A stretch of DNA of 64,000 nt from Amphiscolops sp. MND2022 (lineage: Eukaryota): assembly GCA_964187785.1 (NCBI GenBank), contig OZ076409.1, positions 41,852,001 through 41,916,000 of the forward strand, in the 5' to 3' direction. Within the stretch, counting starts at the first letter, position 1. Each line of letters starts with the position of its first letter. Made by a program: the position numbers and the translations under genes. The notes beneath the pieces were generated by a model. The model was not told the origin of the DNA. It did not search any database and was given only the letters and a program-made list of their open reading frames with translations. Shown piece by piece: positions 23,801 to 64,000 of this stretch.

Positions 23801-24976
23801 ACATACTGGAACGGGACTGAGAGAACCATCCAATCCATGAAGAATCTACAAAAAGCCAACTTAGAAGACGGAACCAATCTTAGAAATAGTTTAGACAAAG
23901 CACTATATGTGCTTAGATTTACAACCCATTCTGAACTACAAAAAACACCTTTCAAACTCCATTTTGGACGAAAACCCAGAACGAAATTAACCAACCTAAA
24001 AAATGCTATTTCAGCCGACTCAAAAGACTTGTCTGTGTACATAACCCGAAGCTCTACGGGCGAAATCACCGACCACTTGGTGATGTCCAAGAAGAAGACG
24101 ACCGATCCAAAGTACAGACGGGGGATGACTTTCTCCCAGACGAAAAAACCGCCAAATACGGTCAGTACGAACAAATATCCTTTCTCTTTTTACGAAAAGA
24201 ACTACAAAACGAATTCACTGGGCAGCAAATTTAATAACAAACGGCAAACAGCTATTTCGGGTACAAAACATACAGTTACCACCGAAAAAAAAGTAATACA
24301 CAGAAAACTAATATCCAACCTATTACCATTTCAGAACAATACAACACCGACGAAACGGGTAACCACCCGACAAACGACTGCGGAACAACCGTCTTGCTCC
24401 AAATCAACTGAACCACAAACAACTTGCGTCTACAGAAGGAAGGAACCACCAAAGCCGAACAACCACGAAAACAGCGAAGACTGGATCCGCAGGAAAGACC
24501 AACCGAGATATGAGAAGGGACAATTCACTTCCCCACAGAAGAACACCGGCAACAAGACGGACTTAGACCTGAGCATCGTCTCAGATGACGAATTTAACTG
24601 CTACAACAACAGTGAAGGCAGCCCAATAAGCGTGAATGTGGACCACGAACTACAAATCCACCCGAAAGAAACGAGACTATCGCTGGAGACAGGTATAAAC
24701 CACGACCACATAATAACTAAACCAACAACGCCCGTAAGAAGGTCTAGAAGACTACCATTTGCAAAACAAGCCGAAAAACTAGGCGGTATCCCTTACCAAA
24801 CCAATAATAATCGTAAAAGAAATAAATATAACCATAATCTGTTACAGGAAAAACGGACGACACCACCACAAAACAGTGAAGAAGAGGAAGACCGTAACAT
24901 ACGGACAAAAGAAGAAGTCAACCGTATTATACGAAACCAACACCCCAAACCACAAACCCACATAAAGAGGGGGGAA
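20807..24976 (+). pseudogene. pol: Gypsy RT - RNase H - insert - integrase - long C-terminal tail
   Basis: RT IDLDYAY and PVWLDDII; RH TDACGTGLG, ELELLAVVW, FSDHQAL; IN H..H..C..C, QMDFTG, KTDKG; frameshifts near 20935, 21955, 23820 and stops at 22590, 22917, 23610. Confidence 0.92.
24964..24976 (+). promoter_or_regulatory. Polypurine tract
   Basis: AAAGAGGGGGGAA immediately before the 3' LTR. Confidence 0.9.
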
Positions 24977-25191
24977 TGTGACATACGAAGGTCACAACCC
25001 AAAAAGAGCAACAGTGTTGTTGTCAAACAAACTCATAAACAACTGACTTAGCTACTGCTCTATTTATGTTTAGTTGATATGATACAAAAGATACATTACT
25101 CTACCATTATGTATTTGAGATAGATACAATACAGACGAAGAGATACTACCGTACCTAACCTGTTTTAAATTTAGATTTAGCGATCTTAACA
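24977..25191 (+). repeat. Gypsy 3' LTR
   Basis: Direct repeat of 19217-19431, followed by TSD ACTAC. Confidence 0.97.
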
Positions 25192-33526: not shown

Positions 33527-36500
33527 CCACAACATTCCCACAGTGTACCTCTCTTTTTCAAAATGCGTTGTCTTCTCCAAAGTATCAAGTGGTTTAACAA
33601 CTGATCTGGATCGCCCGTCAACTTCCACTCGTGAACCATAACTTTCGTTGTCCCACCATGTCTTGATTTGTTCGTTCAAGTCGAAATCTGCAGGTTGGTA
33701 AACTGAACTATGACGACAGAATGATGTCAGTGACGACAGAATCTTTTTTGGCAGTCCACCCCATAGGACATCGAACAGCCAAGGGTTCACCTTGGTCACC
33801 GCGTTGATATACTGAGCGTCGAGTCAATGAGAAGCAACCTATTCCCAGGAGTGCTTTGACATCTTTCGGATTAAACTTGTTGGTCGAATACTTGATCAGT
33901 TGTGGGTATTGACTCTGCAATAGTCGAATATCATAGAAACTGTCGTTGATGACAAAATTTTGATGAATAGCCATATGGATATCTTAGTTTCCGTAGTCTT
34001 CCGAATGAAACGTGACTTTGACAAACTCACTGTCGTGGCATTCATTACTTTGTATTCCACTAACAGTCAGACCACGTTTGACTCGCTACAGCCTTACAGA
34101 ATCAGTTGATCGGCTGATGACTTATCAATCCATGACACACCAGACCCATTAACGACTGATGCAAGGATCTTCACTTTTTTCCCGTTGTTTGATAGGTAGA
34201 ATGCCAAAAGTGTTCACACTTACACTAACATGGGTCTCTTTAGTCTCCGTTGACGTTGTGTTAGAGATTTTGTTCCTTTTCTGGTCGGTGCAACAATCTG
34301 TTGTGACGCCTTTTGCAGCCGTTTATTCCACAGTCTTCCATTTTGCAATCCTTGACAGCATGTCCTTCGCGGAAACATAGGAAGCGCTCTTTGTTCTGCT
34401 TCACTTTTTTATACCGGTCGAAAGTAGCAAGTTTCTTCAATGCGTCACAAGTTCAAAATTCATGGGCATTGCCGAAGACACCGCATTTAATCGGAGCCTT
34501 AGGGCTAGCATTGAATGTAGGCAACCCACTCTAATTGGTGGTCGCCGACATGGATGATCGTGCTGTTGTTGCTCGGTCAGTCGACGTGGACTGCTTCTTG
34601 TCGCTGCTTTGTTTGAATTGAACCAGCAGTTCATCAAAACAAAAGCAACGTTGATCAACCACCCACAAACTCTACTCAACTTTGCAGTTTGATATTTCTA
34701 TCCTTTTGCAAAGGACAGTCATTTCGTTTTCAACCCTGGAGGTAGTTTTCTCACAGCGCTATTCAATAGAGACTATGAGCAAAAATCTTCTGTAAAACCG
34801 CACTGATTCAAGACACTACCACCCGTTGTTATGAACTGGGCATATTCAATGATAGCCGGTGAGTCATGAAATTTGTTGAAAAGGTAAGAGTGTATAAGTT
34901 TCATTAGAGCATTAACCACTGTTGCGGACTAACGTGTACCAAGCAGTGTGATTTAACGCCCCAGAGTTACCAAGACCTGCACATGCGGCTTTGGCATTGC
35001 CTTTGACCAACGTCTTTAAATGGCACGTTTTGGCATTGTCCTCGATTTGCGCATCGTGAATGAGTGCATTAAAGATATTGGACCATCCCAGAGGATCAAA
35101 TTCAGTTATCTTCAATTTTGGTAGACCAAAAAAATGTCCAATTGGGGAGGACAGCTTGGTAAATTGGCGTTGTGTCGAGACGTGACACCCTGTTGGGTTT
35201 TGCGCTGGCAGATTGTTCATAATGTTGGAACTTTTCGGCTTCTATCACTTCCGTCAATAATCCTTCTGCCTTTGCGCTCGGTTGAAAGATCCGCTCTCAA
35301 TTACCTTCCGTGGTTGTCCCCTACTTCGTGCAGTCACTGGTACTGGATCGCTTGAGATAACAGTGTTTCTTTCTGCAGTTTCCACAACATTCTGCGAAAT
35401 TTACTTTTAAATCTCCAGGAAGTCTGTTTTGATCTAACCAGCTTTTGATGTAGCTGTTTTCGTCGTCATCAAATGATAATGACATCACCCTGGGACTGAC
35501 AGTCGACCCATGACATGAGCCTTGTGCTACTTCAATTTGAAAACTCGTTCCATGCATTTTAATGGATGTCTGATCATGTAAATCTGCCAGCTCGCATGCT
35601 TCATTTGAACAAACGGAACAATGCTGAACTTGCATTGCTTCTTTTTCCATTTCCCGCTGCTTGCGTTGTAGCTCGAGTTCTTTTTCTTTTCTCTCAAACG
35701 CCATTCGTGAATCTTCTTCCAAAAATTTCGCTCGACTCTCAAGTCGACGAAGTTCACTTAGTCGTGAAGATCGAAGTCGGGTGTTGGAATGTTGATACTT
35801 GAAGGCTCACTGGCTACATTTTCCATTGTTGATGGAAAGTTGCTAGTGGATTGCTTCAGCTCATGACTCACGTCTGCTGGAGCATTGAACTTCGTAGAGC
35901 CTTCCTCGTACTTTGTTGACACGTCCCGTGAAAATGTGTCGTTGAGACTCTTCAAAAGTTTCAAGCGCTGGTTCATTTTCTCGGCAGCATATTCTTTGCG
36001 TTTGCCATGATCTGTTTTAGCAGCATTATTCGAAAGATCCTGAGCTTCCGAACAATCGTCGGCTACTTTTGCATTGTCAGCCTCAGGTTACACTGACTGG
36101 AAATACATTTCTCTGCTCTCTCGATCTTCATAGCCAATGCGTTCAATTGTTGCTTTCTGAAGTCCTCAGTGTACATTCCCACAACATTCCCACAGTGTAC
36201 CTCTCTTTTTCAAAATGCGTTGTCTTCTCCAAAGTATCAAGTGCTTTAACATCTGATCTGGATAGCCCGTCAACTTCCACTCGTGAACCATAACTTTCGT
36301 TGTCCCACCATGTCTTGATTTGTTCGTTCAAGTCGAAATCTGCAGGTTGGTAAACTGAACTATGACGACAGAATGATGTCAGTGACGACAGAATCTTTTT
36401 TGGCAGTCCACCCCATAGGACATCGAACAGCCAAGGGTTCACCTTGGTCACCGCGTTGATATACTGAGCGTCGAGTCAATGAGAAGCAACCTATTCCCAG

Positions 36501-38806
36501 GAGTGCTTTGACATCTTTCGGATTAAACTTGTTGGTCGAATACTTGATCAGTTGTGGGTATTGACTCTGCAATCGTCGAATATCATAGAAACTGTCGTCG
36601 ATGACAAAATTTTGATGAATAGCCATATGGATATCTTCGTTTCCGTAGTCTTCCGAATGAAACGTGACTTTGACAAACTCACTGTCGTGGCATTCATTAC
36701 TTTGTATTCCACTAACAGTCAGACCACGTTTGACTCGCTACAGCCTTACAGAATCAGTTGATCGGCTGATGACTTATCAATCCATGACACACCAGACCCA
36801 TTAACGACTGATGCAAGGATCTTCACTTTTTTCCCGTTGTTTGATAGGTAGAATGCCAAAAGTGTTCACACTTACACTAACATGGGTCTCTACAGTCTCC
36901 GTTGACGTTGTGTTAGAGATTTTGTTCCTTTTTCTGGTCGGTGCAACAATCTGTTGTGACGCCTTTTGCAGCCGTTTATTCCACAGTCTTTCATTTTGCA
37001 ATCCTTGACAGCATGTCCTTCGCGGAAACATAGGAAGCGCTCTTTGTTCTGCTTCACTTTTTTATACCGGTCGAAAGTAGCAAGTTTCTTCAATGCGTCA
37101 CAAGCTCAAAATTCATGGGCATTGCCGCAGACAGCGCATTTAATCGGAGCCTTAGGGCTAGCATTGAATGTAGGCAACCCACTCTAATTGGTGGTCGCCG
37201 ACATGGATGATCGTGCTGTTGTTGCTCGGTCAGTCGACGTGGACTGCTTCTTGTCGCTGCTTTGTTTGAATTGAACCAGCAGTTCATCAAAACAAAAGCA
37301 ACGTTGATCAACCACCCACAAACTCTACTCAACTTTGCAGTTTGATATTTCTATCCTTTTGCAAAGGACAGTCATTTCGTTTTCAACCCTGGAGGTAGTT
37401 TTCTCACAGCGCTATTCAATAGAGACTATGAGCAAAAATCTTCTGTAAAACCGCACTGATTCAAGACACTACCACCCGTTGTTATGAACTGGGCATATTC
37501 AATGATAGCCGGTGAGTCATGAAATTTGTTGAAAAGGTAAGAGTGTATAAGTTTCATTAGAGCATTAACCACTGTTGCGGACTAACGTGTACCAAGCAGT
37601 GTGATTTAACGCCCCAGAGTTACCAAGACCTGCACATGCGGCTTTGGCATTGCCTTTGACCAACGTCTTTAAATGGCACGTTTTGGCATTGTCCTCGATT
37701 TGCGCATCGTGAATGAGTGCATTAAAGATATTGGACCATCCCAGAGGATCAAATTCAGTTATCTTCAATTTTGGTAGACCAAAAAAATGTCCAATTGGGG
37801 AGGACAGCTTGGTAAATTGGCGTTGTGTCGAGACGTGACACCCTGTTGGGTTTTGCGCTGGCAGATTGTTCATAATGTTGGAACTTTTCGGCTTCTATCA
37901 CTTCCGTCAATAATCCTTCTGCCTTTGCGCTCGGTTGAAAGATCCGCTCTCAATTACCTTCCGTGGTTGTCCCCTACTTCGTGCAGTCACTGGTACTGGA
38001 TCGCTTGAGATAACAGTGTTTCTTTCTGCAGTTTCCACAACATTCTGCGAAATTTACTTTTAAATCTCCAGGACGTCTGTTTTGATCTAACCAGCTTTTG
38101 ATGTAGCTGTTTTCGTCGTCATCAAATGATAATGACATCACCCTGGGACTGACAGTCGACCCATGACATGAGCCTTGTGCTACTCGTTCCATGCATTTTA
38201 ATGGATGTCTGATCATGTAAATCAGCCAGCTCGCATGCTTCATTTGAACAAACTGAACAATGCTGAACTTGCATTGCTTCTTTTTCCATTTCCCGCTGCT
38301 TGCGTTGTAGCTCGAGTTCTTTTTCTTTTCTCTCAAATGCCATTCGTGAATCTTCTTCCAAAAATTTCGCTCGACTCTCAAGTCGACGAAGTTCACTTAG
38401 TCGTGAAGATCGAAGTCTGGTGTTGGAATGTTGATACTTGAAGGCTCACTGGCTACATTTTCCATTTTTGATGGAAAGTTGCTAGTGGATTGCTTCAGCT
38501 CATGACTCAGGTCTGCTGGAGCATTGAACTTCGTAGAGCCTTCCTCGTACTTTGTTGACTCGTCCCGTGAAAATGTGTCGTTGAGACTCTTCAAAAGTTT
38601 CAAGCGCTGGTTCATTTTCTCGGCAGCATATTCTTTGCGTTTGCCATGATCTGTTTTAGCAGCATTATTCGAAAGATCCTGAGCTTCCGAACAATCGTCG
38701 GCTACTTTTGCATTGTCAGCCTCAGGTTACACTGACTGGAAATACATTTCTCTGCTCTCTCGATCTTCATAGCCAATGCGTTCAATTGTTGCTTTCTGAA
38801 GTCCTC
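33527..38806. repeat. 2.6-kb tandem duplication inside BEL element 2
   Basis: 33527-36167 and 36179-38806 are nearly identical (scattered substitutions, one 14-bp indel); 11-bp filler at the junction. Confidence 0.97.
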
Positions 38807-48759: not shown

Positions 48760-49482
48760 AATAAGTTAGTTGGGCTTGGGCGAAGATGGCGTCCTATTTT
48801 ATATAAAAGTATGAATAGTTTAGGAGGAGTATCAAGCAGTTCCTTGGGCCTTATACAGCCAAACACGGCTCAAACCGTTTATACGAGGGATCAGGGATCT
48901 TCCAGGACATGACTTTACGACTTCTAATGACTGACGACGAAACTTAATTTATGAGTCTTTGGAATAAGCTCAAATTTTCCACGTTGTTAATTTTCAGATA
49001 AACATACAAACACGGACGACAAAACAATGTTATGTTAATCAACATTACTCAATGGATTTTGAAAAACTGAAATGCTTTGCTGCAATAATGATTCATTCCT
49101 TGAAGGATAAATTTGTTGGAACTGTTTTCCTTTCCACCGTGTTTTAGGCTTAACCCCAGAACTAGACTGTTGTTAGTAGAAGTTTGTTTACAAGAGGTTA
49201 TTCCCATTCTACACAAAGCTCAATGACAACTTCAAAAAAGCTCAAAATTAGGGAAAACATTGACTTCATATCTAAATTGTTGATGGCATGTTTTCGATCG
49301 CAATTCATCAAATATTGAAGTTTATTGTAGAAACATTTAATGAATGTTTTGAGAATGAAACAAAAACTTATCACGGCCTAGTCTTTTTCGAACAAATTGC
49401 TCTTGACTGTCACGCCAAGGTGACACCAACATGAAAGAAAACGTTTGAAGAGCGAAAATTATAGCAATTCGGCAATCACAGC

Positions 49483-49651
49483 AGTAGTATACGAATTCCC
49501 GATTCGGGCCAGTCAAATATATTTTTTTTAAAAAATGTTAATTATTATTATTTTTAAAATCAACGTTTTTTTCACAACTAACTGTTAAAAAATAACCAAG
49601 GCAAACCATCTAAAAATTAGTCATTTTTCACAACTGAAAAATTAACAAAAT
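49483..49651 (+). repeat. Polinton left TIR
   Basis: Inverted match to 63659-63830, differing mostly in homopolymer lengths. Confidence 0.95.
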
Positions 49652-49671
49652 TGATGAAAAATAACTATTAA

Positions 49672-50067
49672 ATGAGTTATTTATCATTCAAAGAATTTGT
49701 TAATAAATATGGATTAAAAAATGAAACAACTTCCAATGTAGAAATAAAAGAAATCTTAAAACTCATGAACACATCTTGTGGAATATATATGAGAGATGAT
49801 AAATTTATAACCACCAGTGGTATAGTTAACTTACATCCAACTAAAGGAACACGTTGGGTTATGTTTACAAACCAAAACTATTTCGATTCATATGGCTGTC
49901 CACCACCACTAAATATAACAAAACAAATTAATAATGGTATCTATTCAGAATATCAAATCCAGAAAGACGACAGTTATTGTGCAGCGTATTGTTTGTATGT
50001 GTTGTATCTCACAAATATAATTGGCTTCAAAAATGCAGTTTTAAATTTATACTACCAAAATTTATAA
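49672..50067 (+). CDS. Adenain-like cysteine protease (catalytic His replaced by Arg)
   Basis: GIVNL..GTRWV (family GxHWV), YFDSYG, QIQ..DSYCAAYC. Confidence 0.9.
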   Translation: MSYLSFKEFVNKYGLKNETTSNVEIKEILKLMNTSCGIYMRDDKFITTSGIVNLHPTKGTRWVMFTNQNYFDSYGCPPPLNITKQINNGIYSEYQIQKDDSYCAAYCLYVLYLTNIIGFKNAVLNLYYQNL

Positions 50068-50074
50068 TTCTTAA

Positions 50075-50269
50075 ATGAAGAATATTAATAATTATTCAGC
50101 TCAATTTAAAACTATTCAAAAACCAATGAATACCAATGAGAATCAATTTGATGAGAAAATAATAGAAAACAATAATCCAAAAAATAATCAAAAAAAGAAA
50201 TTATCAAAACAAAACCAAGACTTTATAAATAAGATATCCGCAAGTGAATTTAAACAATTTTTCGCTTAA
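50075..50269 (+). CDS. Small hypothetical Polinton protein (64 aa)
   Basis: Tightly packed between PRO and mCP with a TAAATG start. Confidence 0.6.
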   Translation: MKNINNYSAQFKTIQKPMNTNENQFDEKIIENNNPKNNQKKKLSKQNQDFINKISASEFKQFFA

Positions 50270-50272
50270 TAA

Positions 50273-51334
50273 ATGGATCTATCAAATTTTGTAACCTATG
50301 ATAAAAAAGAATCTCTTTTATTGAGTATTGCAAAATCTAATCAAGAAATTGTTGAAAATACTCATTCTAAACCACAAGAAACTTTAGAATTTAAAATGAA
50401 TGAACAAAAAGAATCTTTTTCATTCGATGTTCCCTTGGAGCTGCCAGAACAATGGATGATGGGAGTAACAAGTTTAGAAGTATATAACAGTGTATATAAT
50501 ATTACCAACAAAAATAACTCATTCCAGATACAACTAACAGACGAACAACTTAATGGGATTGATACAAAACTTGCAATGAATATTGAATACCTTCATAAAA
50601 CCAATCAACCAGATTTCAATAAAACAGTTTATGGTTTAATAAATACCACTTTCAAAAATAAAAAGAAGCTTCTAAAAAGTGATCTTGATAAAATCAAGGA
50701 TATAATTAACCAGCATGAAAGTGAAAACCTTCTCAATAAACTTAAAATTTTCGAAGTTATTGATCTCCCCATTATGAATGAAAAAATAGAAATAAAACTC
50801 CAACCTGGAATATATGAACTAAGTGATCTGAATACAGCAAAACAACAAAAATTACAATATTATCAAGATCATCGAGAATATAAAATAAATGGTGTAAATA
50901 TTAACATTGAAGCAGATACAATATCAATGAAATCAGTTTTAACAACTTCTAATCCCATTAATTTTAATTCAAAATTAAATGAACTTCTAGGATTCACAAA
51001 TACACACTATATACAAGGAACTCATATATCAGAAAAACCAGTTATGATAACAACGACAGACAAAGTTCATCTGAAATGTGATTGTGTAGGTGGTTCAATT
51101 GTTAATGGTATACAAGAACAAATCTTGTTTAGTTTTAATCTTTCCTCCCCACCAGGATATAAAATTATAGAAGAACCCATAATTATTTTGTATAAAAAAA
51201 TAAACAAAACAAGGTTAGATAGTATTCAATTTTTCTTAGAAGATTCCAACCAAAATCCAGTTGATTTCAATGAGGGAAACATTAACATTTATAATTCAAA
51301 TCATCTAGATTTAATTCTAATAAATGAGCTTTAG
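50273..51334 (+). CDS. Minor capsid protein (penton), C-terminal frameshift
   Basis: LEVYNSVYNITNKNN, VHLKCDCVGGSIVNG, PPGYKIIEEP..LYKKIN, NPVDFN; the expected ETLTFIIQI tail lies in another frame from ~51277. Confidence 0.8.
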   Translation: MDLSNFVTYDKKESLLLSIAKSNQEIVENTHSKPQETLEFKMNEQKESFSFDVPLELPEQWMMGVTSLEVYNSVYNITNKNNSFQIQLTDEQLNGIDTKLAMNIEYLHKTNQPDFNKTVYGLINTTFKNKKKLLKSDLDKIKDIINQHESENLLNKLKIFEVIDLPIMNEKIEIKLQPGIYELSDLNTAKQQKLQYYQDHREYKINGVNINIEADTISMKSVLTTSNPINFNSKLNELLGFTNTHYIQGTHISEKPVMITTTDKVHLKCDCVGGSIVNGIQEQILFSFNLSSPPGYKIIEEPIIILYKKINKTRLDSIQFFLEDSNQNPVDFNEGNINIYNSNHLDLILINEL

Positions 51335-51707
51335 TAAATTTAAAAATAATTCATACTGTGTTGGTGGAAAACATTATTCCGCTACCACAAATATTCGTGG
51401 AGATATCACTCAAAATAAAAAAACAGGAGCACCTGTTAAATTATTAAGAGGCACTTGTTCAACTTGTAAAAGAAATAAGAGTCTCATTGTTTCTGATCAA
51501 ACAATACAAGCAGAAGGATTAGGTGACTTTTTCCGAGGTATAGGAAAAGCCGCCAAGAATGTCGGAAAGAAAATTTTAAATAATCCTGGACGAGCATTAG
51601 AACTCGCAGCTAATATTGGTACAGCAGCAGCAAGTAAAAATCCAAAACTTATTGCCGCAACTGCTCCTGATATTATAAAATTTGTTCATCAAGGAAAAGG
51701 CCTGTAA
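51324..51707 (+). CDS. Candidate virion core / membrane-lytic precursor protein
   Basis: Cys/His-containing N-terminus (YCVGGKH..CSTC), amphipathic GLGDFFRGIGKAAKNVGKKIL, AEG-L and GKG-L sites; probable premature stop (GKGL*LGKIH). Confidence 0.7.
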   Translation: MSFSKFKNNSYCVGGKHYSATTNIRGDITQNKKTGAPVKLLRGTCSTCKRNKSLIVSDQTIQAEGLGDFFRGIGKAAKNVGKKILNNPGRALELAANIGTAAASKNPKLIAATAPDIIKFVHQGKGL

Positions 51708-51774
51708 TTGGGTAAAATTCATTGATTTACAGCCTTGCTGTAAATTAAATTTTATTATTTATGAATAATAAATT

Positions 51775-52727
51775 ATGTATTCAATTCATAATCGAGATGA
51801 TTTAGAAAAGTTAAAAAAATTGCAAGAATCAAAATCTTTAATAAAAGCTGAAAGATTAAAACAACTCCTAGGGAAGCAAGATTTTCATTACGATATGGAA
51901 GAAGTTTTTGAATCTGTTACCAAAAATCAGACCAAACAACAACAACAATCTGAAAAGCGAATACAAGCACTACGGGATTCTACTCAAACTACAACACAAG
52001 CAATACAAGACCAAACTAGAGCAATACAAGAAACGAGTAATACTCTTAATAAAAAATTACATAAATCAGTTAAAGAAGGAATACAAGAATATGATAAAAT
52101 TACAAATTGTAATAAATTGTTACAGATCTGGTTAACTCAAACCAAGTTGATTCTAGTATCGTTAAGACAGTTTCTAATTTGCTTAATGACAACAACAAAA
52201 GTCAATGTAGTTTAGAACCCGTGGAAGGAAGTTCCAATTTTGTCACAATTAACCATACTGATCCTCAACAAGTACTAATCAAAGGTTCAACAATGACTTT
52301 CCCGAATGGTAGCACGTACTATTTAAAAGATCCGGATCTTTCATTCTTTATAACGAATACACACTTCGATAATCTACCACAAAATAGCAATATAATTCAC
52401 AGTTTTTTAAATGATATGAAATATAATATATATCATGCAGATAAAAAATCAAGAATATATCATTTAATTAAAGCTATATTTAATACATACTATCAACAAC
52501 CCCAATTAGGAACTGGATTGAATTTTATTTTCCTTCCATCTGATCCAGATGAACTTGTAGATCAAATAAAACTACTTTATTTTGAAAAAGTAGGAGGAAA
52601 TGATAATCCTATGCTTAGTGAACAAATCATAGCAAGTGCTGATAAACTTTTACAATACCAATGCATTACAACAAATCAGTATCAAAACCTTATACAAACT
52701 TTTAGTTTGCAAACCTTTGGTTTGTAA
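51775..52727 (+). pseudogene. Conserved Polinton accessory protein, split by a frameshift
   Basis: Overlapping ORFs 51775-52215 and 52179-52727; Q/T-rich coiled coil; C-terminal GTGL..LPSDPDELVDQIKLL..K.GGN motif I associate with Polinton proteins. Confidence 0.65.
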
Positions 52728-52736
52728 GCACTTTTA

Positions 52737-53726
52737 CTAAAAAGGATCAGTTTGTGGACTAAACACCTGGTATTGCGGATTAGATTCATTACATATCATA
52801 TACTTACTCCCATTTTTATCTTCTAACCTATTTATTAATAAATAATTATACTTATCCCGCCATGCTTCTTTACACAAACTTTTGAATTCATCATAAGACA
52901 TATCAAAACCAGCAATATCTCTATAAATGTGTTCAACATCTTTCAATGTTTGTTGAAATAAAATTATAATATTACTATTGTTTCTAATTGTTCTTTTAGG
53001 TAAATCAAAGTATGACTGTGATAAATAATAAACATCTAAATCATCATGTCTTCCTCTAGTAGAAAATGGATCTATTAATTTCTGTGAAGTGTCCAACATA
53101 TCATCAAATACAACACAACAATTTTGAAAATCTTGTATTGTTCTATCTTCTAGATCTTCGTCCACTGAAATATTTTCTATTTCTGTATTTGTATATTGTC
53201 CCGGAGATCTAATTATTATATGTATTTGTTTTTCTTTATCATATAATCGAATTAATTGTAATTTGTTTAATAACAAATGGGTCTTACCACAAAATGATGG
53301 GCCAACTATCAATGTCCTATTACAATTATTATCAATATTATCATTATCATCATTTGTAATGATATTATTTGTATGATTATTATTATCATAATTTTCATTA
53401 TGATTTATAATTTCATTATTTGTATAATTATTTTTATCATGATTTTCATTATGATTTATAATTTCATTATTTGTGTAATTATTATTATCATGATTGATAA
53501 TACATCTTTTTAAATGTTTTGATAAACAAGTTTTATTGAATTCCTTATTACAGAATTCACATTTTACGTTTTTATTGAAACATTCTATACATGTACTATA
53601 CAATTTATCATTTTTATATTTGTAAAAATCTGTTTTCAGTATATTACACACTTTACATCTTTTTTTATTCTCACAATCGGAACAGACAGATTTTTCATTA
53701 CTTTTTCCACAAATTATACACTTCAT
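52737..53726 (-). CDS. A32/FtsK-type packaging ATPase 1 with N-terminal Cys-rich region and Asn-rich linker
   Basis: Walker A GPSFCGKT, Walker B VVFDD, TRGRH..YLSQSYF..TIRNN; ORF open. Confidence 0.93.
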   Translation of the reverse strand: MKCIICGKSNEKSVCSDCENKKRCKVCNILKTDFYKYKNDKLYSTCIECFNKNVKCEFCNKEFNKTCLSKHLKRCIINHDNNNYTNNEIINHNENHDKNNYTNNEIINHNENYDNNNHTNNIITNDDNDNIDNNCNRTLIVGPSFCGKTHLLLNKLQLIRLYDKEKQIHIIIRSPGQYTNTEIENISVDEDLEDRTIQDFQNCCVVFDDMLDTSQKLIDPFSTRGRHDDLDVYYLSQSYFDLPKRTIRNNSNIIILFQQTLKDVEHIYRDIAGFDMSYDEFKSLCKEAWRDKYNYLLINRLEDKNGSKYMICNESNPQYQVFSPQTDPF

Positions 53727-53732
53727 TTATTC

Positions 53733-53846
53733 AGTAAAAATCACTAAATCACTAAGCAAATTCACTACGGGCATATCTTCTTAAGTGTAACTTCTTTGCT
53801 TAGTGACAAAAAAATGCTCTTAGTGAATTTGCTTAGTGATTTTACT
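53733..53846. repeat. Intergenic inverted repeat between the two ATPase genes
   Basis: AAATCACTAAGCAAATTCACTA (53746-53767) / TAGTGAATTTGCTTAGTGATTT (53821-53842), perfect 22-bp arms with imperfect extensions. Confidence 0.85.
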
Positions 53847-53890
53847 AAGAAAATTACTAAGAAATCGAACCCATTTTTTGGGTAATTATT

Positions 53891-54928
53891 TCATTTTAAT
53901 GTATTTGCGATGCCAGCTTTACTACCGTAACTAATTGCTTGTTCCATTATAATATTCTGAAATTCCTGTTTAAGTGAGTCTGAAATAAGTGGTTGTTGCA
54001 TTCTATCGATGTAATTGTCTATTTTAGATTCATTTACTTTAATTTTATTTTGTTTACAATAATATACATAATAATAAGCTACATTAAAAGGTGTTATTTC
54101 ACTTGTTTGATCTGACATATCTTCTAGGAATATTTTAAGTTTATTATATTCTTCACCTGTAAAGAATTAACTTTCATATTTTACATAATCCTCTGGACCC
54201 CATTTATGTTTAGTTGTATCGTAGACTAGTTGGTATTTGTGATTGAGTATTTTATACTTTTGTGATCTAGTATCAAATTCAATTACACCAAATTCTAATT
54301 GGTCATGATATTGTTTCCAATTAAGTTGTTTGATACTATAACAACTCATCATTGTTTCGAAAAATGTATCTGGACTATTTATTGTGATATATAACTTAAA
54401 ACAATTTTCTCTAACAACAAGTAGAACATCCTTTGAATAATGTGCTTAACTAATAAGATAAATAACTTGTATATTATGATGTCTTCCAAACCGGAATAAG
54501 TTTTCTACGTTTGTTTTGAGTTGCTTATAAGCACCCGCATCATCTAAAATGATTGTTTTATCAGCAAGTGATTCAATGTTAATATTTTGTAACTGCAACA
54601 ATTGTATAAATCTACCCGGGAACTCGGCTTCATCTCTACCGAATACTATAAAATCGCTTTTAGTTTGATCTAAATAATACTTCAGGAAACTAGTCTTACC
54701 TGATCCACTAGTACCATACACCAAAAAATGACAATTGGTATTTGTGATTGGTTTGACTTGTGGCTCGTCTTTTGGTTGATCAGTTAGATGGGACTTTTTA
54801 AATCCCTTGAATTGTTTTAGTTTTTGGTGTATTTTTTCGTAATGTCTAGGTCTAATATAATACCAATAAATATATAAAACTATAATAACAATTACACATA
54901 ATAAACCTATATAAAATTTTTTATTCAT
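53891..54928 (-). pseudogene. Second A32/FtsK-type ATPase with N-terminal transmembrane helix (346 codons, 2 in-frame stops)
   Basis: ORFs 54446-54928, 54167-54352 and 53891-54118 share one frame; GTSGSGKT, IILDD, FRFGRHHNIQVIYL..HY..VREN; hydrophobic FYIGLLCVIVIIVLYIYWYYI. Confidence 0.88.
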
Positions 54929-54942
54929 TTATTAGGAAATAA

Positions 54943-55797
54943 ATGAGTGAAAAGATGAAAGAAATCACTAAAGAAATATTCTCTCCTGTAATCAAGAAGT
55001 TTCAAAGAATTCAAATACAAACTCACTATAAAGATGAGTGTTGGAGTATCGATCTGATAGACAGGTCTAGCTTAGCAAAATACAACAAAAACTACAAATT
55101 TTTTTTTACAATAATTGACAATCCTACTAAATATGCATGGGCAATTCCTCTTAAAGATAAATCAGGAAAAAGTACAACAACTGCATCTAAAAGTCTTATT
55201 GAAAAAGCAAAAAGAAAACCTGATAAAATTTGGTCAGATAGAGGTAAAGAGTTTTATAATAAAACATTTTTGGATTTTCTTAAACAAAATGAAATTCAAA
55301 TTTATTCAACTAATTCAGATTTAAAAGCTGTTTTTGTTGAACGATTCAATAGCACATTTCTGGACTTAATCAAAGAACCCATGTACATTGAAGGAAAATC
55401 TTGTTGGTTGAATCATCTTGATGCTGCTTTACAAAAGTATAATAATCGTGTCCATGGTACAACAAAAATGACACCTTTTGAAGCTAATAATCAACCAATA
55501 GATCCACCTACTTTTGTTAATAAACCGGAACAACCCAAATTCCAAGTGGGAGACCATGTAAGAGTTCCTGATAAACGCAATTTATATAGTAAAGGTTACA
55601 CAACAACTTGGAATAGAGAACTTTTTAAAATACATAAAATTAATCCAACTAACCCAGTTACGTATGGTTTAGTAGATGAAAACAACGAACAAATAGAAGG
55701 AAAATATTATGAACAAGAACTTTTAAGAAGTATATTCAACTATAAATCTCACAACAAAACGTTAGAAAGTATGAATATTTTCCACCAGTATGGGTAA
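54943..55797 (+). CDS. Retroviral-type (rve, DDE) integrase without chromodomain
   Basis: WSIDLID, IWSDRGKEF, VERFN; KFQVGDHVRV..KGYTTTW C-terminal domain. Confidence 0.95.
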   Translation: MSEKMKEITKEIFSPVIKKFQRIQIQTHYKDECWSIDLIDRSSLAKYNKNYKFFFTIIDNPTKYAWAIPLKDKSGKSTTTASKSLIEKAKRKPDKIWSDRGKEFYNKTFLDFLKQNEIQIYSTNSDLKAVFVERFNSTFLDLIKEPMYIEGKSCWLNHLDAALQKYNNRVHGTTKMTPFEANNQPIDPPTFVNKPEQPKFQVGDHVRVPDKRNLYSKGYTTTWNRELFKIHKINPTNPVTYGLVDENNEQIEGKYYEQELLRSIFNYKSHNKTLESMNIFHQYG

Positions 55798-55814
55798 TTA
55801 TATTTAAATAAATA

Positions 55815-56531
55815 ATGTCAATTCATAAATTTGGTTATAGTGCCGGAAGCTTACAAAAAGATAAGATTGAGAATTTAGATAAAGAATTGGAATCACAAAC
55901 CAAATTAATCAACTTAAAACTTAATGATATGCAAAGCACCATAAATGGTATGACTGATAACCTACAAAATACCGAATTGCGTGTACAAGAAGTTAATTTT
56001 GATGATGGTGAAATCAAGGTAGTAGTCAATGCAAAGTTATTCTTAGACATAAATATAAATATAGAAGACTTGAAAATCAACCTGAAGTACTTAGAACAAG
56101 ATGTTAAAAATAAATTTTTAGAAAAGAAAAAAGAAAAAATTTTGGATGCTGCCAAGTTAGTGGACGAACAACAAACCATTTTACGTAATCATTTCGAGAG
56201 AAACCTTATTTCGGAATTGGAAAAATGTAAAAATCAAGCAGTCAAAGATACTATACAGTTACTATACAACAAAGGATTGTTTGACTCATTTGAAAATAAA
56301 GACCAAATCTTTAATGAGTACTTATATTTTCATGATGAATACTTGTTGGAAAAATACGGAAAAGAAATAAAGACATCAGATGGTGTGTAATATTTATCAG
56401 ACTTGGACTATTCAACGCGAGAAGATATTTTGAAGTGCTTAAATATAGATGAATACAAAGATATTGTTGATCTTAATTATAGAATGAAACTAACCGATAC
56501 TGAGACAACCTTTATACTTTTTAAAGACTAA
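55815..56531 (+). pseudogene. Coiled-coil hypothetical protein, probable premature stop at 56388
   Basis: 191-aa ORF; the frame stays open for 46 more codons to TAA 56529-56531; N-terminal MSIHKFG. Confidence 0.6.
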
Positions 56532-56565
56532 TTACTTTATAAATTAAGTTTTTATTTAAAGTTAA

Positions 56566-57087
56566 ATGAGTGAAAAATTGTACCCTTGTTTACAACCAAG
56601 TGATAGTCTTGATCTTAGAACAAAAGAAATAAATAGTTTTAATAATTCAATTCAAAATATAAAAGATATTCAAAATTTTTATAATCATGAAGCTAAAAAG
56701 TATAAAAAGAAATCTAAAACATATAAAATTATAAACGGTTTGATTCAATCTATTGATGGAGTTTCAGTACTAGCAGTATCATCAACATGTGTCACGTTGA
56801 GTGTCACAGGAGTTGGACTTGTTGTTGTACCTATAGCAAGTGGTATAGGTGCAGGTTTATGTATATTTAGTAAAATTGCTGGAAAGTACCTGAAAAGAGA
56901 AGAACAACACAATATTAAAAAATATACTCTTGCTGGAAGAACACTACATGATTTCTGTAAACTACATTCAAAATGTTTAGCAGACAATAAAATTGATCTG
57001 AATGAATACAACAAATTAAAACAAACTTACGATCTATATAAAACAAATAAAACTAAATCAAATTCTGAGTTTACTTTTTTAGGATAA
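56566..57087 (+). CDS. Membrane protein with hydrophobic hairpin and N-terminal LYPxL motif
   Basis: MSEKLYPCL; basic helix followed by VSVLAVSSTCVTLSVTGVGLVVVPIASGIGAGLCIFS. Confidence 0.75.
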   Translation: MSEKLYPCLQPSDSLDLRTKEINSFNNSIQNIKDIQNFYNHEAKKYKKKSKTYKIINGLIQSIDGVSVLAVSSTCVTLSVTGVGLVVVPIASGIGAGLCIFSKIAGKYLKREEQHNIKKYTLAGRTLHDFCKLHSKCLADNKIDLNEYNKLKQTYDLYKTNKTKSNSEFTFLG

Positions 57088-57155
57088 ATTTATTTAGTAG
57101 AAATAAAATCAGTATAAATTTTAAATCATCATCATGAATATTTATTCTTTTATAA

Positions 57156-58395
57156 ATGGAATTATTTTCTTTGAAAAATAAATATGCTATGGATAAACCA
57201 ATTCATAAAATTGATTTTATTAAATACTTACCTGGTAGTTTAGCTACAATCAACAACAATAATTCAAATATTTCCATCATCTTCCCAAGAGAAGATGCAT
57301 ATATTTGTTTACAAAACTCATATATATCATTAGAATTTGAAGTTCTTAAAAATGATGATACAAGATATGCAGATGGTGATCAAATAAGCTTGGTCAACTT
57401 TGGACCTGTTGCTTTATTTAGTGAAGTTAAGTTAACTACTAGTTCAGGTAAACATTTAGAAAAGGTTAATAGATAAAAGATAATCTACACCCAATTTCAT
57501 TGATGTATAAACTTTTAACATCTAATCAACAAACAAGTCAATTGATGTACGGATTTGAAGAATCACAAGCAACTAGAAGACAAGAACTAACAAATAATAA
57601 AACAGAGAAAGGAACCTTTTTTGTTAGAATAAAATTAACTGATATATTTGGATTTGCTGATCAAGAAAAATAACTTATGGATTGGGTTATACTCTAACTT
57701 TAAAACGAAATAATCATAATGATCCTATCATCAGGGACAATGGTGTAGATGCTGCAAAAATAAATATAAAAGACATCTCCTGGTACATTCCACACTACAC
57801 ACCATCAATGGAAAACCAACAACTCGTGATGGATCAAATAATAGACAAAGATCCAACTGAACTGTATTATATTGAACGAGTTGTTTTTAGAATAGATGAT
57901 AACACGAATAATTCGTGGACATTTGAATTAGGTAACAGTGGAGAATCGACACCAAGTTTTATAATTGTTGGATTTCAAGCTAGAAATAAAGTTGATTCAC
58001 AAACACGTGATGATGCAATATTTGATAGGTTACCTGTTTCAAATGCAGTTTGTAAAATAGGATCAGAAAAATATCCCGATGATGGAATAGAATGTGACTA
58101 CAACCGGGATAAGTATGATCAAGCATACAGTGAAATTGAAAACTTCTATTTGTTAAAAAGTGAAACTAATCTACTCAATCCATTTATTGATTTGCACAAA
58201 TTCAGGACAAATTATAATTTTTATGTATTTGACTTATTCAAACAAGATGATAATATTGCGAGTCAACCTATTAGATTAGAATTTAAACTTGATGCTGCCA
58301 TTAATGTAGCAGACTATATAGCTTATGCCCTAGTCCTAACACCCAAGCTGATAAGTATCAGCAGTGATGGACAAAAGCATTTTGATTTATTATAG
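57156..58395 (+). pseudogene. Major capsid protein (double jelly-roll), two frameshifts
   Basis: REDAYICLQNSYISLEF, PVALFSEVKL, SWYIPHYTPS, PSFIIVGFQ, IGSEKYP, FYVFDL; apparent 11-bp insertion at ~57468 and 1-bp loss at ~57668; about 410 aa reconstructed. Confidence 0.85.
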
Positions 58396-58521
58396 ATAAA
58401 TATAATAATTTAAAAATAATATTATATATATATATATAAAAGGGTATCAGAGATTCCTTATTCAAAAAATATAATAAATAAATTTTAAAATAATATTTTT
58501 ATTTTTATAAATTAAATATAA

Positions 58522-61500
58522 TTATAAAACATGTGCTCGATCACTTATCAACTTCACAAGTTGTTGATGGGTTAGATTTTCTTTTTGGTACCAAATATTC
58601 AATAAATTTCTTCATCTGTTTTCTTGCTACCGTCATCATTTATAATTAAATTTTTATAATACAAACCAATTAATTTCAAACAATATATACAAGGACAATC
58701 ACCTTTTTGTGTGTGTTTATCCCATGGTAAACTTTTTATTGGATTTATATACAAACGTTTATCATCAAAAGGATTCAAACACGACTTAGGTTGTTTTTCA
58801 ACTGTAAGGTTGTGTAAATTAGATCTAATTGATATATTTGTAGAACTTGATGTTTCTGACTTAAACAATGAATTTTTGTAGTGTTCACATTTGGGAGCTT
58901 TTTGTATTCCTTTTTGTTTCGCTTTTTGAATACTATTGTAACTAAAAGAATATGACTTTGATCGCAATGCTGTGAAGGTATCTAACACCAAAACTGGACT
59001 TGTTTCAATTTTCATTTTTCCTATAACTTTTTTGTTAATAGGATCATATAATTCATCACTTGGGTGTAATTCACTGAAATCAATTTCATCTTTGTTTTCT
59101 TGTAAAAAGTTTATTAGTTCTTGGTGGTTTGTATCAAAACTCAGAATAAAACTATCATTGTCCATGTAGTGTAGTTGTATGGATTGTTTCCAATATGGTT
59201 GTAATTTGTTATAATAAAATTCATACATTAATAGTTTTGATAGTTCTAAAACTGTAAAACCTAAATAAATTGGTTTATCAAAGACTCTTTTTTCTTTATC
59301 AAACTTGTACACACTAAACTTAGAATAATGATCCACAAGCCTTTGAAACTTAACTTGGATTGTCTTTTTATTATTTGATCTATTTGAGAATGATCAATGA
59401 ATTCTAGATTGGTTCTATCTCTTACATTTTCCATAGTCTTCCCAAAAAAAGCATTATTCATTAATTTATAAAGATCCTTTTCAAAGTTTGTTTTCGCTAC
59501 TGTGCGTTTCTGAGTATTATGATCGATATATTTACCTAACCATGGACTTTGTTTAAACTTATAGATAGTATGTATCTTCGTTACTTTCATCCCTTGGTTA
59601 AGATAAAACTTAAACATCCTATAATGTATCATATTTTTCGATTTATTGGTTACATCACACATAAGTTTTGGGGTTGGTTTGTAATTAGGTTGATTTACAT
59701 TATTCATATAAGCTGAGAATAAGTCTGGATCTGCTTTTGTTTGATACGGACAAAAAGGAAAATTTTTTGTTTTTTCTTTAATTTCTGCTGGATATTCTAA
59801 ATCACATTCAATGAAGTAACCATATTCACTATCATCAGGTATTTGTAATAAATCTTCTACTAATTGATCTTGTGAGTAGTTTTCTGGAAGTTGTAGTTTT
59901 TCGAATTCGCCTGTAGGAAGATATTGACTCATTGCCCATCCATATAGATTATTTGCATCGATATATAAGATTTGTTTATTTTCATCAGATTGCACGTGAC
60001 GATCACCCATAACACTTGAAATTCCTCCACGGATATTATTTTCAAGTAGTAGAAGTAGGTTTTTATCTTTTATAAAGTTTAACTTTATATTAGTCAACTT
60101 CAAACCTGCTTTCCATGTATAACCAGGTAGAGAGTAACTATACAAAGCATTAATTTTATATTCTCGTGTAGAACTTTCCACAAAGTTTTCAAAAACATCA
60201 GCTAATTGAAGAACATCCATTTTTAAATATAACATTTTTAATTCTCTTCCATTTTAATTTTATTTTTATCAATTAATTCTTGGGTTCTTTTTATATCATC
60301 ATCTGATGGATAAGATTGTGTTAATGTTGACCAATAATCTTCTTTGGTTAGATTCAATGGTTCCTGAAAGTTATCAAAATTTAAGTATTCATATGGATAA
60401 GCTAATTTCTTTTTAAATAATTTGTTTTTAAATCCATTTTCATCCATTATTGGGAAACTGTCTAAACTCTTAACTAATTTATCTAAACTACTACTTAGAA
60501 AACGGTATGAATCCAGGAAACGTAAGCAACCTACTTGAATTGATACATAATTTTCCATTGACTTTGGGATTATTTTTGGTTCATACCCCTTTTCGAAAGC
60601 TTGTATTAAGAGTTCTTGAAATATAAGATGACAATCATACCCAGAGAAGTTGTGGAAAAATATAGGAACAAAACTTGATGACCTTTGTTTACAATTTATG
60701 TTACATATATTATGAGCTGCTCCTCTGTATTTTCCTGTTAGATGATCATGATCTCTTACCTTATCTTCTGTAAAAGGCTCTTCACAAAGCCAACACTCTT
60801 CTGCAAGTTTGAATGATTCTTCTTCTTCAGGAGTTATTTGTAATTCTAAGTTTGTTTTAAAATATTTATTTGCTTCTAGTTCTTATTTTAACATTTCCTT
60901 TACAAACCACTTGGTACAATCTGTTCCAAAGTATGAGCTGTACTTGTTTCCAAATGGTGAAACTACATAAAAGCCTACTGCAATTGGAATTTAGTTAAAT
61001 AATACTTTGGGGTTATTTTGAGGTTGATTGATACATTCGAAATCAGCATATACTCTTATTGGTACAGGAACTTTCATATAATAATCTTCGAACTTCAACT
61101 GATCCTTCCAACTGAATGTGATTTTAGTTGGTTGCTGTTTTTGACAACGATCTATATGATCAATTAGAACTGGTTGTGAACTAAATGCTGTTAAACATCT
61201 TCTACACACCCATCGCATGTGTCAATCTTTATTTATTAGACAATGTAACCTTGTTATTAGACAATAGTGATTCTCATACAATAACAAATCTATTTGTGGT
61301 TGTAAGTAATTTTTGTTAACGTGGATTGGTGTTAAAACATTTCCAGTGAGTTCAAATACATTTATGTTTAAATTATTTAAGTTTTCGAACTTGAGAATAT
61401 CTTTAATTTTCATGGGGAATTCTAAACCATTTAAAATGAGTTTGTTCGTGTGCATTGAATAACTTGATGTTCTATTTTTATGATCCTCAACGGGAAAAAG

Positions 61501-62282
61501 GTGTGCTAGGATGCACCACAAAAAGCAAAATTGATCATCATTTTTTATATTCATAATTGATTTATTATTCTTATACTTTTCTGGCAACTCAATGTATGAA
61601 GATGCTTGAATATCATTAATTTTATATATTTCTAATATAACTTCTTCTATTTCTTGAAATTGAAAACCTGATCCTTCTAATTGTTCATCATCTAGTTTCT
61701 GCATTAATGTGTTATGAGTATCTTGTTGTGTACCGGATTGCAAGTGATTATATATTAAATCTGATTTTATCCATCTTTTAAATACTTCTTCTTCTCCATT
61801 GACTATTTTTGAAAATTTAGCTAGATATCTCAATTGATATTAATATCGGGGAAAATAATTTTTACTAAGTAAGTCATTTATGTTATGATCAAGATTTTCA
61901 GTTGGATTTATTTTAAGTTTAATGTATGTATTTTCATTCATAATTATTTCTACTCCATTACCGAAGGTGTTTTGTATACCGAAGGTGCTTTGCATATTGT
62001 TTTGTTGACGGTTTTGACGGTTTTGTAAATGAATTTCACTTTGGAAATGTCTTGTTTTATCAGATATATATCTATTACAATCTTCACACCAAACACGTCG
62101 TTGTTCGGTTTTATTTTTATGTTCATCTGAATTTAGATGACTAGACTTACCTGATAAGGGCATATATAAATTACAATTTTTACAATAATATTGCTTAATT
62201 TTTTTTGATGACCTATTGAATTTATATGATCGGATTTATAAGCTTTTTTATAATCAGAATTACAGATACTACAATTCTCCAT
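58522..62282 (-). pseudogene. Protein-primed family B DNA polymerase (pPolB) with N-terminal zinc fingers, OTU-like protease and EndoVII insert
   Basis: ExoI VYADFEC, ExoII FHNFSGYD, PolA YIDANNLYGWAM, PolB KLMNNAFFGKT, PolC YMDNDS; at least 8 stops or frameshifts. Confidence 0.95.
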
Positions 62283-62356
62283 TTCCTTTTATTAAGGAAA
62301 AAATAGTTTAATTAAAATTTTTCAATATGTCTTTTTTAAAAAAAATGTTTTTTTTT

Positions 62357-63142
62357 ATTTTTCTCACCTGTGGGTTCAAGATGAAAAAATTTGTTAGGAA
62401 CAAAATTTGTTCATATTTTAGATGTCTCCAATTTTATTTACTGACTTTTCACGGTAGGACCAACCAGTCTTGAGAAAAATGCGAAAAACCATATTTTCAC
62501 ACCTGTTTTCTCACCTGGTAATCAGTGGGTCCAAGATACAGAAAACTTTCTTCCAGAAAAAAGTTTGTCTTGTTATTGTCTATAACTTTGATTTTCTGCG
62601 TCGGCATTGTAGGATGACTCAATTTCGAGAAAATTGAGAAAAACCAATTTTTCACACCTGTTGGGGCAGGTGGTAATCAGTGGGTTTTCAGTAACGAGCT
62701 GAATTTTGGTGAGTAGATTTCTTTTCTGATGCACTACATTTTTGTTCCCATGAGTCATCACGCTAAAACTAACGGTTGAGCGAGTTCCTTTGATCTTGCA
62801 AGTTTCAAGGTCAACCCTGATCTCAACACCTGTTCGGGTCACATACAAGCTGAGTATACCATAAGAAAGATCATATATGAGAGTGGACCTAATTTACAAC
62901 TGTTACTAGTCTTACTCCAACCGTTTTCGTGAAAATTGAGAAAAACCATTTTTTCACACCTGTTAGGGCAGGTGATAATCAGTGGGTCCAAGATACAGAA
63001 AATATTCTTTTTGAAAAAAGTGTATCTTGGTATTGTTTACAATTTTGATCTCCTATGTCATTTCGCTGGGAAGAGTCATTCTCGAGAAATTGGGGAAAAA
63101 CCCTATTTTCACACCTTTTTTGGCACCTGGTAATCAGTGGGT
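62357..63142. repeat. ~155-bp-period diverged tandem array upstream of pPolB
   Basis: Core TTTTCACACCTGTT..(CACCTG/CAGGTG)GTAATCAGTGGGT ending at 62530, 62685, 62987, 63142; partial cores ending at 62375 and 62839. Confidence 0.85.
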
Positions 63143-63658
63143 TACTTTTAGAGGACACCCTTAAGAACAAATTTTGTGTAATTTTTAATTTTCTACAACT
63201 TTTATTTCTAATGTTTTTCTCAAAAATGATTTCCTGTTGAGATATTGAACAAAAAATGTTTTCCCATGTATTAAGATTAGGTATAATTCACTAAGTCATG
63301 AAATAACTCGCTTGGAATTTATACTCGGTGAAACAAAAAGGCAAACCAAAATTCAAACCAAAACTCAAACCAAAACCAAAATTCAAATAATTTCAGAAAT
63401 TATCAGAATTTCCGATTTGGTTTAAATGCTTTGATCTACTTTCATGTTTCTCGAGTGTGAAATGTCATTTTGTCATCACTGCACACTTCACTGCAAAAAT
63501 GAATTGAATTGCACATGTTACACTTTTAAGCCAGCGTTGCTGTAATTCAATCCAAAAAATTTTTGCTACACAAACTTTCTCTATTACCATAATGGAGGTT
63601 AGTGAATTTTTGCTTCATGACAAAATTGTTTATTAATAAATTTTGCTCATTGATTTTT

Positions 63659-63830
63659 ATTTTGTTAATTTTTAGCTGTGAAAAATGACTAATTTTTAGA
63701 TGGTTTGCCTTGGTTATTTTTTAACAGTTAGTTGTGAAAAAAACGTTGATTTTTTTTAAAAAAATAATAATTAACAATTTTTAAAAAAATATATATTTGA
63801 CTGGCCCGAATCGGGAGTTCGTATACTACT
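63659..63830 (-). repeat. Polinton right TIR
   Basis: Inverted match to 49483-49651. Confidence 0.95.
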
Positions 63831-64000
63831 CACAGCACCTTGAGGAGTCTGCATTCCTTCATAATTGCTTTTCCATTTAGGCTTCAAGCAAACTACGAAT
63901 TCATGTCGAACCTGGATAAAGATCGCTAAAGCCATTTAAAAGCGCATTCAAAGAAACAATTAACAAATTTTCATCCAAAAACCACATCTGAAAATTTTGA

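Follow-up and report, generated by a model that had tools for sequence, protein, structure and literature searches.

A 64,000-nucleotide stretch from the genome of Amphiscolops sp. MND2022 (contig OZ076409.1, positions 41,852,001 to 41,916,000; referred to as the window) contains a complete Polinton/Maverick element that codes for two adjacent A32-like ATPases. The upstream one, ATPase-M, has a predicted N-terminal membrane anchor. The downstream one, ATPase-Z, is predicted to be soluble and carries a zinc-finger-like N-terminus. Both ATPases are real and under purifying selection, and the two-ATPase locus cannot be put down to decay. The element belongs to a lineage of two-ATPase Polintons that is known from one genome. 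A literature search found neither a Polinton with two ATPases nor one with a membrane-anchored ATPase, although subscription papers, Repbase, figures and preprint supplements may show such cases. The first-pass annotation of the window had suggested a heteromeric or membrane-tethered DNA-translocation motor that points to a membrane-containing particle or to a second role in DNA transport. What stands of this is a pair of selected A32/FtsK-HerA-type ATPases, one of them with a conserved predicted anchor; a heteromeric motor, ATPase activity and a membrane-containing particle are hypothetical.

The two ATPase genes in the window copy

The two minus-strand genes that had been noticed from the letters alone are present at that place, each with Walker A, Walker B and the GRH motif. 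In ATPase-M (53891..54928, minus strand), an N-terminal hydrophobic helix and a linker precede the A32-like ATPase core, which is followed by ~105 aa of a helical C-terminal domain. As had been proposed, the gene is one 346-codon frame with two internal TAA stops (X161 and X254). The first break is an in-frame 9-bp insertion that carries the stop (54446..54454, minus strand) and is absent from 4/4 aligned copies. The second is a stop codon that is private to the window copy (54167..54169, minus strand). Of all fetched loci, just the two that are the window itself have the exact letters that span either break. Walker A comprises residues 72-79 (54692..54715, minus strand), the GRH arginine-finger motif is found at 54479..54487 (minus strand), and the Walker B DD is additionally present. 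The hydrophobic stretch at the N-terminus, also claimed previously, extends over approximately residues 5-25 and has a 19-residue Kyte-Doolittle mean of 2.47. The transmembrane helix is predicted for residues 7-25 (54854..54910, minus strand) by hydropathy only and is helical in the structure model.

ATPase-Z (52737..53726, minus strand) is open and codes for 329 aa. It is a predicted soluble A32-like ATPase with a Cys-rich, zinc-finger-like N-terminus and an Asn-rich linker; this fusion had not been part of the first-pass annotation. Its motifs are Walker A (142-149), DD (208-209), GRH (225-227) and Gln 237. All of these, including the canonical glutamine sensor, are kept in 6/6 aligned copies. 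ATPase-Z has no hydrophobic helix (maximum hydropathy 0.73).

ATPase-M and ATPase-Z share 28% identity over 105 aa (BLASTP, E 0.004), and a profile-profile comparison relates them with a probability of 95% (E 3.7e-8, 111 columns). In Pfam scans, the first piece of the window ATPase-M reaches 23.9 bits for Pox_A32 (cut-off 22.8) and the X-read frame 22.0, while its homologues exceed the cut-off. The same scans gave no Pox_A32 match for ATPase-Z, the ESM Atlas neighbors of which carry Pox_A32 (score 0.93). ATPase-Z is assigned as A32-type because of its motifs, these neighbors, the profile-profile match to ATPase-M and the tree described below.

Copies, linkage and selection

The two-ATPase family has over 250 copies in this one genome. 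In a DNA search, 40 of 1,222 candidates were scored and the best 30 loci, including the window, were fetched. In a protein search for ATPase-M, 150 of 1,818 candidates were scored (83-100% identity). A second subfamily was found via a 65%-identical ATPase-M homologue (104 matches of 104 scored). The sampled copies are the best-scoring ones, and the sample therefore leans to intact copies. ATPase-M is open (341 aa) in 13/29 other copies and near-full in two more. The pair is linked. ATPase-Z adjoins ATPase-M in 29/29 other copies picked by ATPase-M, and ATPase-M stands beside ATPase-Z in 28/29 copies picked by the latter (five loci overlap between the two sets). The sole miss, L085, has unrelated sequence upstream of ATPase-Z. 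In the second subfamily, both ATPases are present in 20/20 fetched copies, with both frames at full length in 15. The order integrase, ATPase-M, ATPase-Z is constant in 8/8 mapped whole elements; other genes are rearranged between the subfamilies. The genome has at least six Polinton families, and the second two-ATPase subfamily includes young copies with identical inverted repeats.

Selection was assessed by the ratio of nonsynonymous to synonymous polymorphism (pN/pS) in the 30 copies, with variants found in one copy separated from those common to at least three. Single-copy variants are near neutral (pN/pS 0.75 for ATPase-M, 0.85 for the ATPase-Z core, 0.76 for the integrase), which is the expected pattern because copies decay after insertion. 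For the common variants, pN/pS is 0.11 in ATPase-M (29 synonymous, 14 nonsynonymous), 0.08 in the ATPase-Z core and 0.10 in the integrase. Neutral change in a gene disrupted in every copy, which was to be feared for the upstream ATPase, is thus not what is found. Between the subfamilies, the ATPase-M core has a nonsynonymous divergence (dN) of 0.18-0.25 and a synonymous divergence (pS) of 0.69-0.87, at or near saturation in 15/15 between-subfamily pairs, and its omega is at most 0.11 where computable; the values to compare are 0.14-0.24 (ATPase-Z), 0.18-0.25 (integrase) and 0.10-0.13 (capsid gene). The ATPase-M helix changes faster in sequence (dN 0.23-0.58) and retains its hydrophobicity. As a separate observation, the pS of ATPase-M exceeds that of ATPase-Z, the integrase and the capsid gene (0.37-0.61), which hints at gene exchange among elements.

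The spacer between the two ATPase genes (53727..53890) holds a 34-nt inverted repeat (53746-53779 / 53809-53842). A 9-base motif from this repeat (window 53746-53842) recurs in 9/9 spacers of both subfamilies and is possibly regulatory.

Anchor, motifs and predicted fold of ATPase-M

The N-terminal helix is conserved in frame, as the proposal of an anchored ATPase demands. It is found in 26/30 copies, the four misses being frameshifts or lost starts. Among 120 near homologues, 20 were excluded (6 without a Walker A match, 14 N-terminally too short), and 98/100 of the eligible ones have the helix. So do 15/17 distant homologues (longer ones, picked by hand). The corresponding count for ATPase-Z homologues is 0/120. 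In 15/15 aligned rows at 22-67% identity, G72, G77, K78, E102, D129, D130, R149, H150, H160, R170 and N172 are invariant. The polar sensor of ATPase-M is a His. This residue was considered as the mark of a pseudo-enzyme, which was rejected, as the sole ATPases of other Polinton families have His as well. The C-terminal domain can be aligned in most of the 15 rows; it has no Pfam match and lies outside the span of the structural matches. A typical A32-like ATPase is soluble and restricted to the motor domain. In ATPase-M, a conserved N-terminal hydrophobic helix and the C-terminal domain flank the core, and it is therefore a variant A32-like ATPase. The anchored A32-like ATPases are an apparently undescribed family.

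The structure model of ATPase-M (predicted local distance difference test, pLDDT, 79; predicted template-modeling score, pTM, 0.55) is most like B204, the packaging NTPase of STIV2 (Foldseek E 1.3e-5; VIA Z 15.7, root-mean-square deviation 2.7 over 164 residues); next come VirB4, HerA and TcpA, a coupling protein (Z 13.2-14.3). In BFVD, A32-like proteins rank top for the model (Foldseek), and the ESM Atlas neighbors of ATPase-M are viral Pox_A32 clusters. By its motifs and this model, ATPase-M is an A32-like ATPase of the FtsK/HerA type: it keeps all ring-ATPase motifs, and its predicted fold is nearest to that of B204, a packaging ATPase.

When 1.84 billion representatives were searched with a profile of ATPase-M, 326 hits came up, mainly fragments. 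The distant homologues are environmental records on contigs of 1-8 kb. In the two contexts that were fetched, a stand-alone zinc-finger-like gene adjoins the ATPase (L067:275-1261, L068:575-1219). Both genes are weakly similar to ATPase-Z at its N-terminus (E 1e-4 and 0.002 in pairwise comparison). In IMG/VR, scans with four queries from ATPase-M and one from ATPase-Z gave no match, and phage records gave none either. A fifth ATPase-M query of IMG/VR gave three weak partial matches, none of which was counted with the family: two fell below E 1e-8, and the third was an equal match to both profiles. Ten short matches in prokaryotic genomes are at the level of Walker A only and were not counted. 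A PDB sequence search gave weak P-loop matches only.

Origin of the pair

A Pox_A32 search of the genome led to 20 stretches of 20 kb, of which 13 represent other Polinton families and 7 the two-ATPase family. Each of the 13 has one A32-like ATPase hit, and at least five other Polinton families in this genome have a single ATPase, in accordance with the premise of the first-pass annotation that one A32/FtsK-HerA ATPase is the norm. A tree built from 31 cores unites the anchored proteins in a single group (100/99), and the members from this genome are nested in it. The nearest sister family's sole ATPases are weakly grouped with ATPase-Z (93/86). ATPase-Z has a long branch (1.31), and long branches meet. 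These groupings suggest that the ordinary Polinton ATPase most likely lives on in ATPase-Z and that ATPase-M belongs to an old, separate family. A recent duplication of ATPase-Z as the source of ATPase-M was considered and rejected, as ATPase-M nests among remote homologues. The divergence of the two proteins had already been read in this way.

The slot before the soluble ATPase

In single-ATPase Polintons of this genome, the position directly before the ATPase is commonly occupied by a small hydrophobic frame. By fixed rules, we searched 12 stretches (two of which yielded no ATPase) for small hydrophobic frames that end at most 15 nt from the ATPase start. Such a frame, of 52-190 aa, is present at 7/10 single ATPases vs 0/80 other long frames in the same stretches (loci L113, L115, L117-L118, L119-L120, L121, L123 and L145-L146). 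The frames have 87-97 aa (two hydrophobic stretches), 190 aa, or 52 aa (a single stretch). Of the three misses, two have a broken homologue at this place and one has none. The copies are kin, and the count therefore amounts to about four or five independent families rather than ten. In the two-ATPase family, the slot directly before ATPase-Z is occupied by ATPase-M, on the same strand. No small membrane-protein frame was found in 9 inter-ATPase spacers of other elements, and in one intact two-ATPase element the only other small hydrophobic frame is an antisense one of 40 aa within the capsid gene, so that its coding strands hold none.

In vertebrate Mavericks, an unexplained frame, pm, adjoins the ATPase (available text of PMC8097293), and the small slot frames of the other families may be its counterpart. 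One decayed copy (L125:9314 to L126:309), from another Polinton family, has the small membrane frame and the ATPase joined in frame, which shows how easily an anchored ATPase can originate. This membrane-ATPase fusion was not taken as a further case of an anchored ATPase; it occurs in a single copy, and three sister copies keep the frames apart or broken.

Possible function of the pair

The explanation that we favor, tentatively and at somewhat less than even probability, is that ATPase-M is the membrane-fixed part of a genome-packaging vertex, on which the soluble zinc-finger ATPase-Z docks with the DNA. ATPase-M would be anchored by its one N-terminal helix in an N-out/C-in orientation, with the ATPase on the ATP-bearing side. 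The ATPases would form rings, either one mixed ring or two stacked ones, and the zinc fingers of ATPase-Z may recognize DNA. In analogy to PRD1 and its P20/P22 conduit below P9/P6, ATPase-M would have taken over the job of a small membrane protein, and the particle would contain lipid. The membrane reading gains indirect support because the slot before the soluble ATPase holds a small membrane frame in single-ATPase Polintons of the same genome. It is tempting to extend this to Polintons in general, which would package through a membrane by a soluble A32 ATPase and an adjacent membrane component. The latter would usually be a small membrane protein and here a second, anchored ATPase, in a two-motor vertex with the zinc-finger ATPase; the virions would be PRD1-like and contain lipid. 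We regard this extension as rather doubtful.

Several observations weigh against a packaging vertex of this kind. The slot frame is lacking in the single-ATPase element L109 and in the decayed L127. The small frames are of at least two unrelated sequence types, neither of which resembles the ATPase-M helix (tblastn), and the slot argument is therefore positional only. VirB4, HerA and TcpA are within 1.4-2.5 Z units of B204 in the model comparison, so that the fold cannot tell packaging from other DNA transport. The ATPase-M helix is a hydropathy call rather than the output of a dedicated predictor, and it could be a cleaved signal. The flanking charge favors C-in only in the family from this genome (+5/+6 vs +2); distant homologues are mixed. 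No second ATPase is found on L067 and L068 within 1.3-3.3 kb of contig, and the pairing is therefore known from one genome only. Finally, a clade of ATPase-M and ATPase-Z is permitted by the approximately unbiased test (AU p 0.135), and a very old duplication is thus compatible with the data.

The two ATPases may instead have separate jobs. ATPase-Z alone would package, and ATPase-M would be an independent pump in the style of FtsK or a coupling protein that carries the element's DNA through a host membrane (at the nuclear envelope, at the endosome during entry, or from one cell to another). The sequence of membrane helix, linker and motor corresponds to the FtsK architecture (as outlined in the accessible part of PMC11703096), the structural neighbors VirB4, HerA and TcpA fit this role, and ATPase-M is arranged head to head with the integrase in every mapped whole element, at a distance of 14-34 bp. 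Moreover, the sole ATPases of sister families, with which ATPase-Z forms a group (93/86), are enough for their elements. We nevertheless consider it improbable, given that the top structural match is a virion packaging ATPase, that the ESM Atlas neighbors are viral, and that ATPase-M directly precedes ATPase-Z on the same strand, in the slot of the small membrane frames. Another division of labor would make ATPase-M the working, directly anchored packaging motor and ATPase-Z a DNA-binding adaptor or regulator with weak catalysis. In the profile alignment, the invariant glutamate E102 of ATPase-M, which follows the second strand, is a glutamine in ATPase-Z. This position may be the catalytic one, as in FtsK/RecA. 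The zinc-finger-like domain gained by ATPase-Z and its long branch (1.31) would also fit. Such a take-over is quite unlikely, however, since Walker A, DD, GRH and the canonical glutamine sensor are all retained in ATPase-Z, the core of which is under as much constraint as the integrase.

ATPase-M might also be an accessory gene captured from another virus, acting on host membranes or in signaling and having no role in DNA movement. Unrelated environmental records contribute homologues of 22-46% identity to its clade. Between the subfamilies it has more synonymous divergence than its neighbors, as a gene exchanged on its own would have, and its C-terminal domain lacks a Pfam match. We give this a low probability: all ring-ATPase motifs are retained, ATPase-M is missing in only 1/29 copies picked by ATPase-Z, and it sits amid core genes, unlike the accessory genes of vertebrate Mavericks, which are found in the flanks (available text of PMC8097293). 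That the upstream gene is a dead or redundant duplicate in decay, with a helix that arose by chance, is hardly credible. The window copy of ATPase-M is indeed broken, as are roughly half of the 30 copies, but its neighbors are broken as often or more (the integrase is intact in 7/30). The strong purifying selection in shared variants, the between-subfamily dN, the intact pairs of the second subfamily, and the helix and motifs that persist to 22% identity refute it.

The host element

The low-GC block of the window is a single complete Polinton/Maverick element (49483..63830; 14,348 bp) in a eukaryotic genome of 1.07 Gb. It ends with AGTAGT...ACTACT and has the features of a Polinton, namely terminal inverted repeats of about 170 bp with 94% identity (left 49484..49651, plus strand; right 63659..63829, minus strand) and a target-site duplication of the 5-8-bp class, here 6 bp (49477..49482 and 63831..63836, plus strand).

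The retroviral-type integrase (54943..55797, plus strand) matches PF00665 (rve; E 3.5e-11). Its start codon and that of ATPase-M are back to back, 14 bp apart (window 54928-54943), and this gap is 14-34 bp in 8/8 mapped whole elements. The major capsid gene, of the double-jelly-roll type (57156..58395, plus strand; PF21738 E 7.8e-18) is split in the window copy and a single frame of 415-422 aa in other copies, with PF21738 also at E 1.6e-22. The long minus-strand gene at 58599..62235 is fragmented in the window copy and forms one frame of about 1,280-1,290 aa in others. It has family-B-like motifs and is read as the gene of a putative family B-type polymerase; its only Pfam match is Endonuclease_7. 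Four further candidate frames (49672..52727, plus strand) have no Pfam match and may code for a protease, a minor capsid protein, a pVI-like and a PZ-like protein. Four copies of a 99-nt repeat lie at 62432-63142, with the start of the putative polymerase gene on one side and the right inverted repeat on the other.

Elsewhere in the window, an A-rich element of ~6 kb (19217-25191) with 215-nt direct repeats of 99% identity is likely a long terminal repeat retrotransposon. A tandem duplication of ~2.65 kb is found at 33527-38481 (97-99% identity).

Comparison with known systems and significance

The element shares with other Polintons/Mavericks (polintoviruses, adintoviruses) its size, AGT-AGT-ended inverted repeats, the 6-bp duplication, the rve integrase, the double-jelly-roll capsid protein and an A32-like ATPase (PMC10748475, PMC8097293, in their accessible parts), and it has a candidate for the polymerase. 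Polintons are described there with a single ATPase. The present family, in contrast, has two, one with a predicted anchor and an extra C-terminal domain, the other fused to a zinc finger.

With vaccinia A32, PRD1 P9 and STIV B204 (PF04665), ATPase-M has in common Walker A, Walker B, the arginine finger and a polar sensor, and its predicted fold is nearest to B204. Viral packaging ATPases are described as little more than the motor domain, and transmembrane domains are noted for filamentous phages (accessible part of PMC11703096). Unlike the bare A32-like motors, ATPase-M has a helix before the motor; its sensor is a His, as in the sole ATPases of other Polinton families in this genome. FtsK/SpoIIIE, the coupling proteins TcpA/TrwB and inovirus gp1/Zot, some of them among the structural neighbors, are also membrane-anchored FtsK-HerA ATPases. 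These are, however, prokaryotic cell or filamentous-phage systems, while ATPase-M has a short A32-type core with one helix and belongs to a eukaryotic, capsid-encoding element. Giant viruses (Medusavirus stheno, Gaeavirus, Tupanvirus) have several A32-like entries each in BFVD. Their genomes are large, whereas the present element has two ATPases with intact motifs, one with an N-terminal anchor, in 14 kb.

Tectiviruses are membrane-containing relatives of Polintons. PRD1 packages its genome via the small membrane proteins P20/P22 under the ATPase P9 (available text of PMC4267777). Its packaging vertex (P9, P6, P20, P22) may share a logic with the two-ATPase family, a soluble ATPase and a membrane component at one vertex. 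The membrane part of PRD1 consists of two small non-enzymatic proteins and would here be a second ATPase.

Two intact motors in a 14-kb element are an unexpected cost for A32-type packaging, and phylogenies of such elements that are based on the ATPase only could pick the wrong paralog. Polinton virions have never been observed (PMC8097293 and 10.64898/2026.06.19.733378, as far as their available text goes). ATPase-M and the small slot proteins of the other families are concrete candidates for testing whether these virions contain a membrane.

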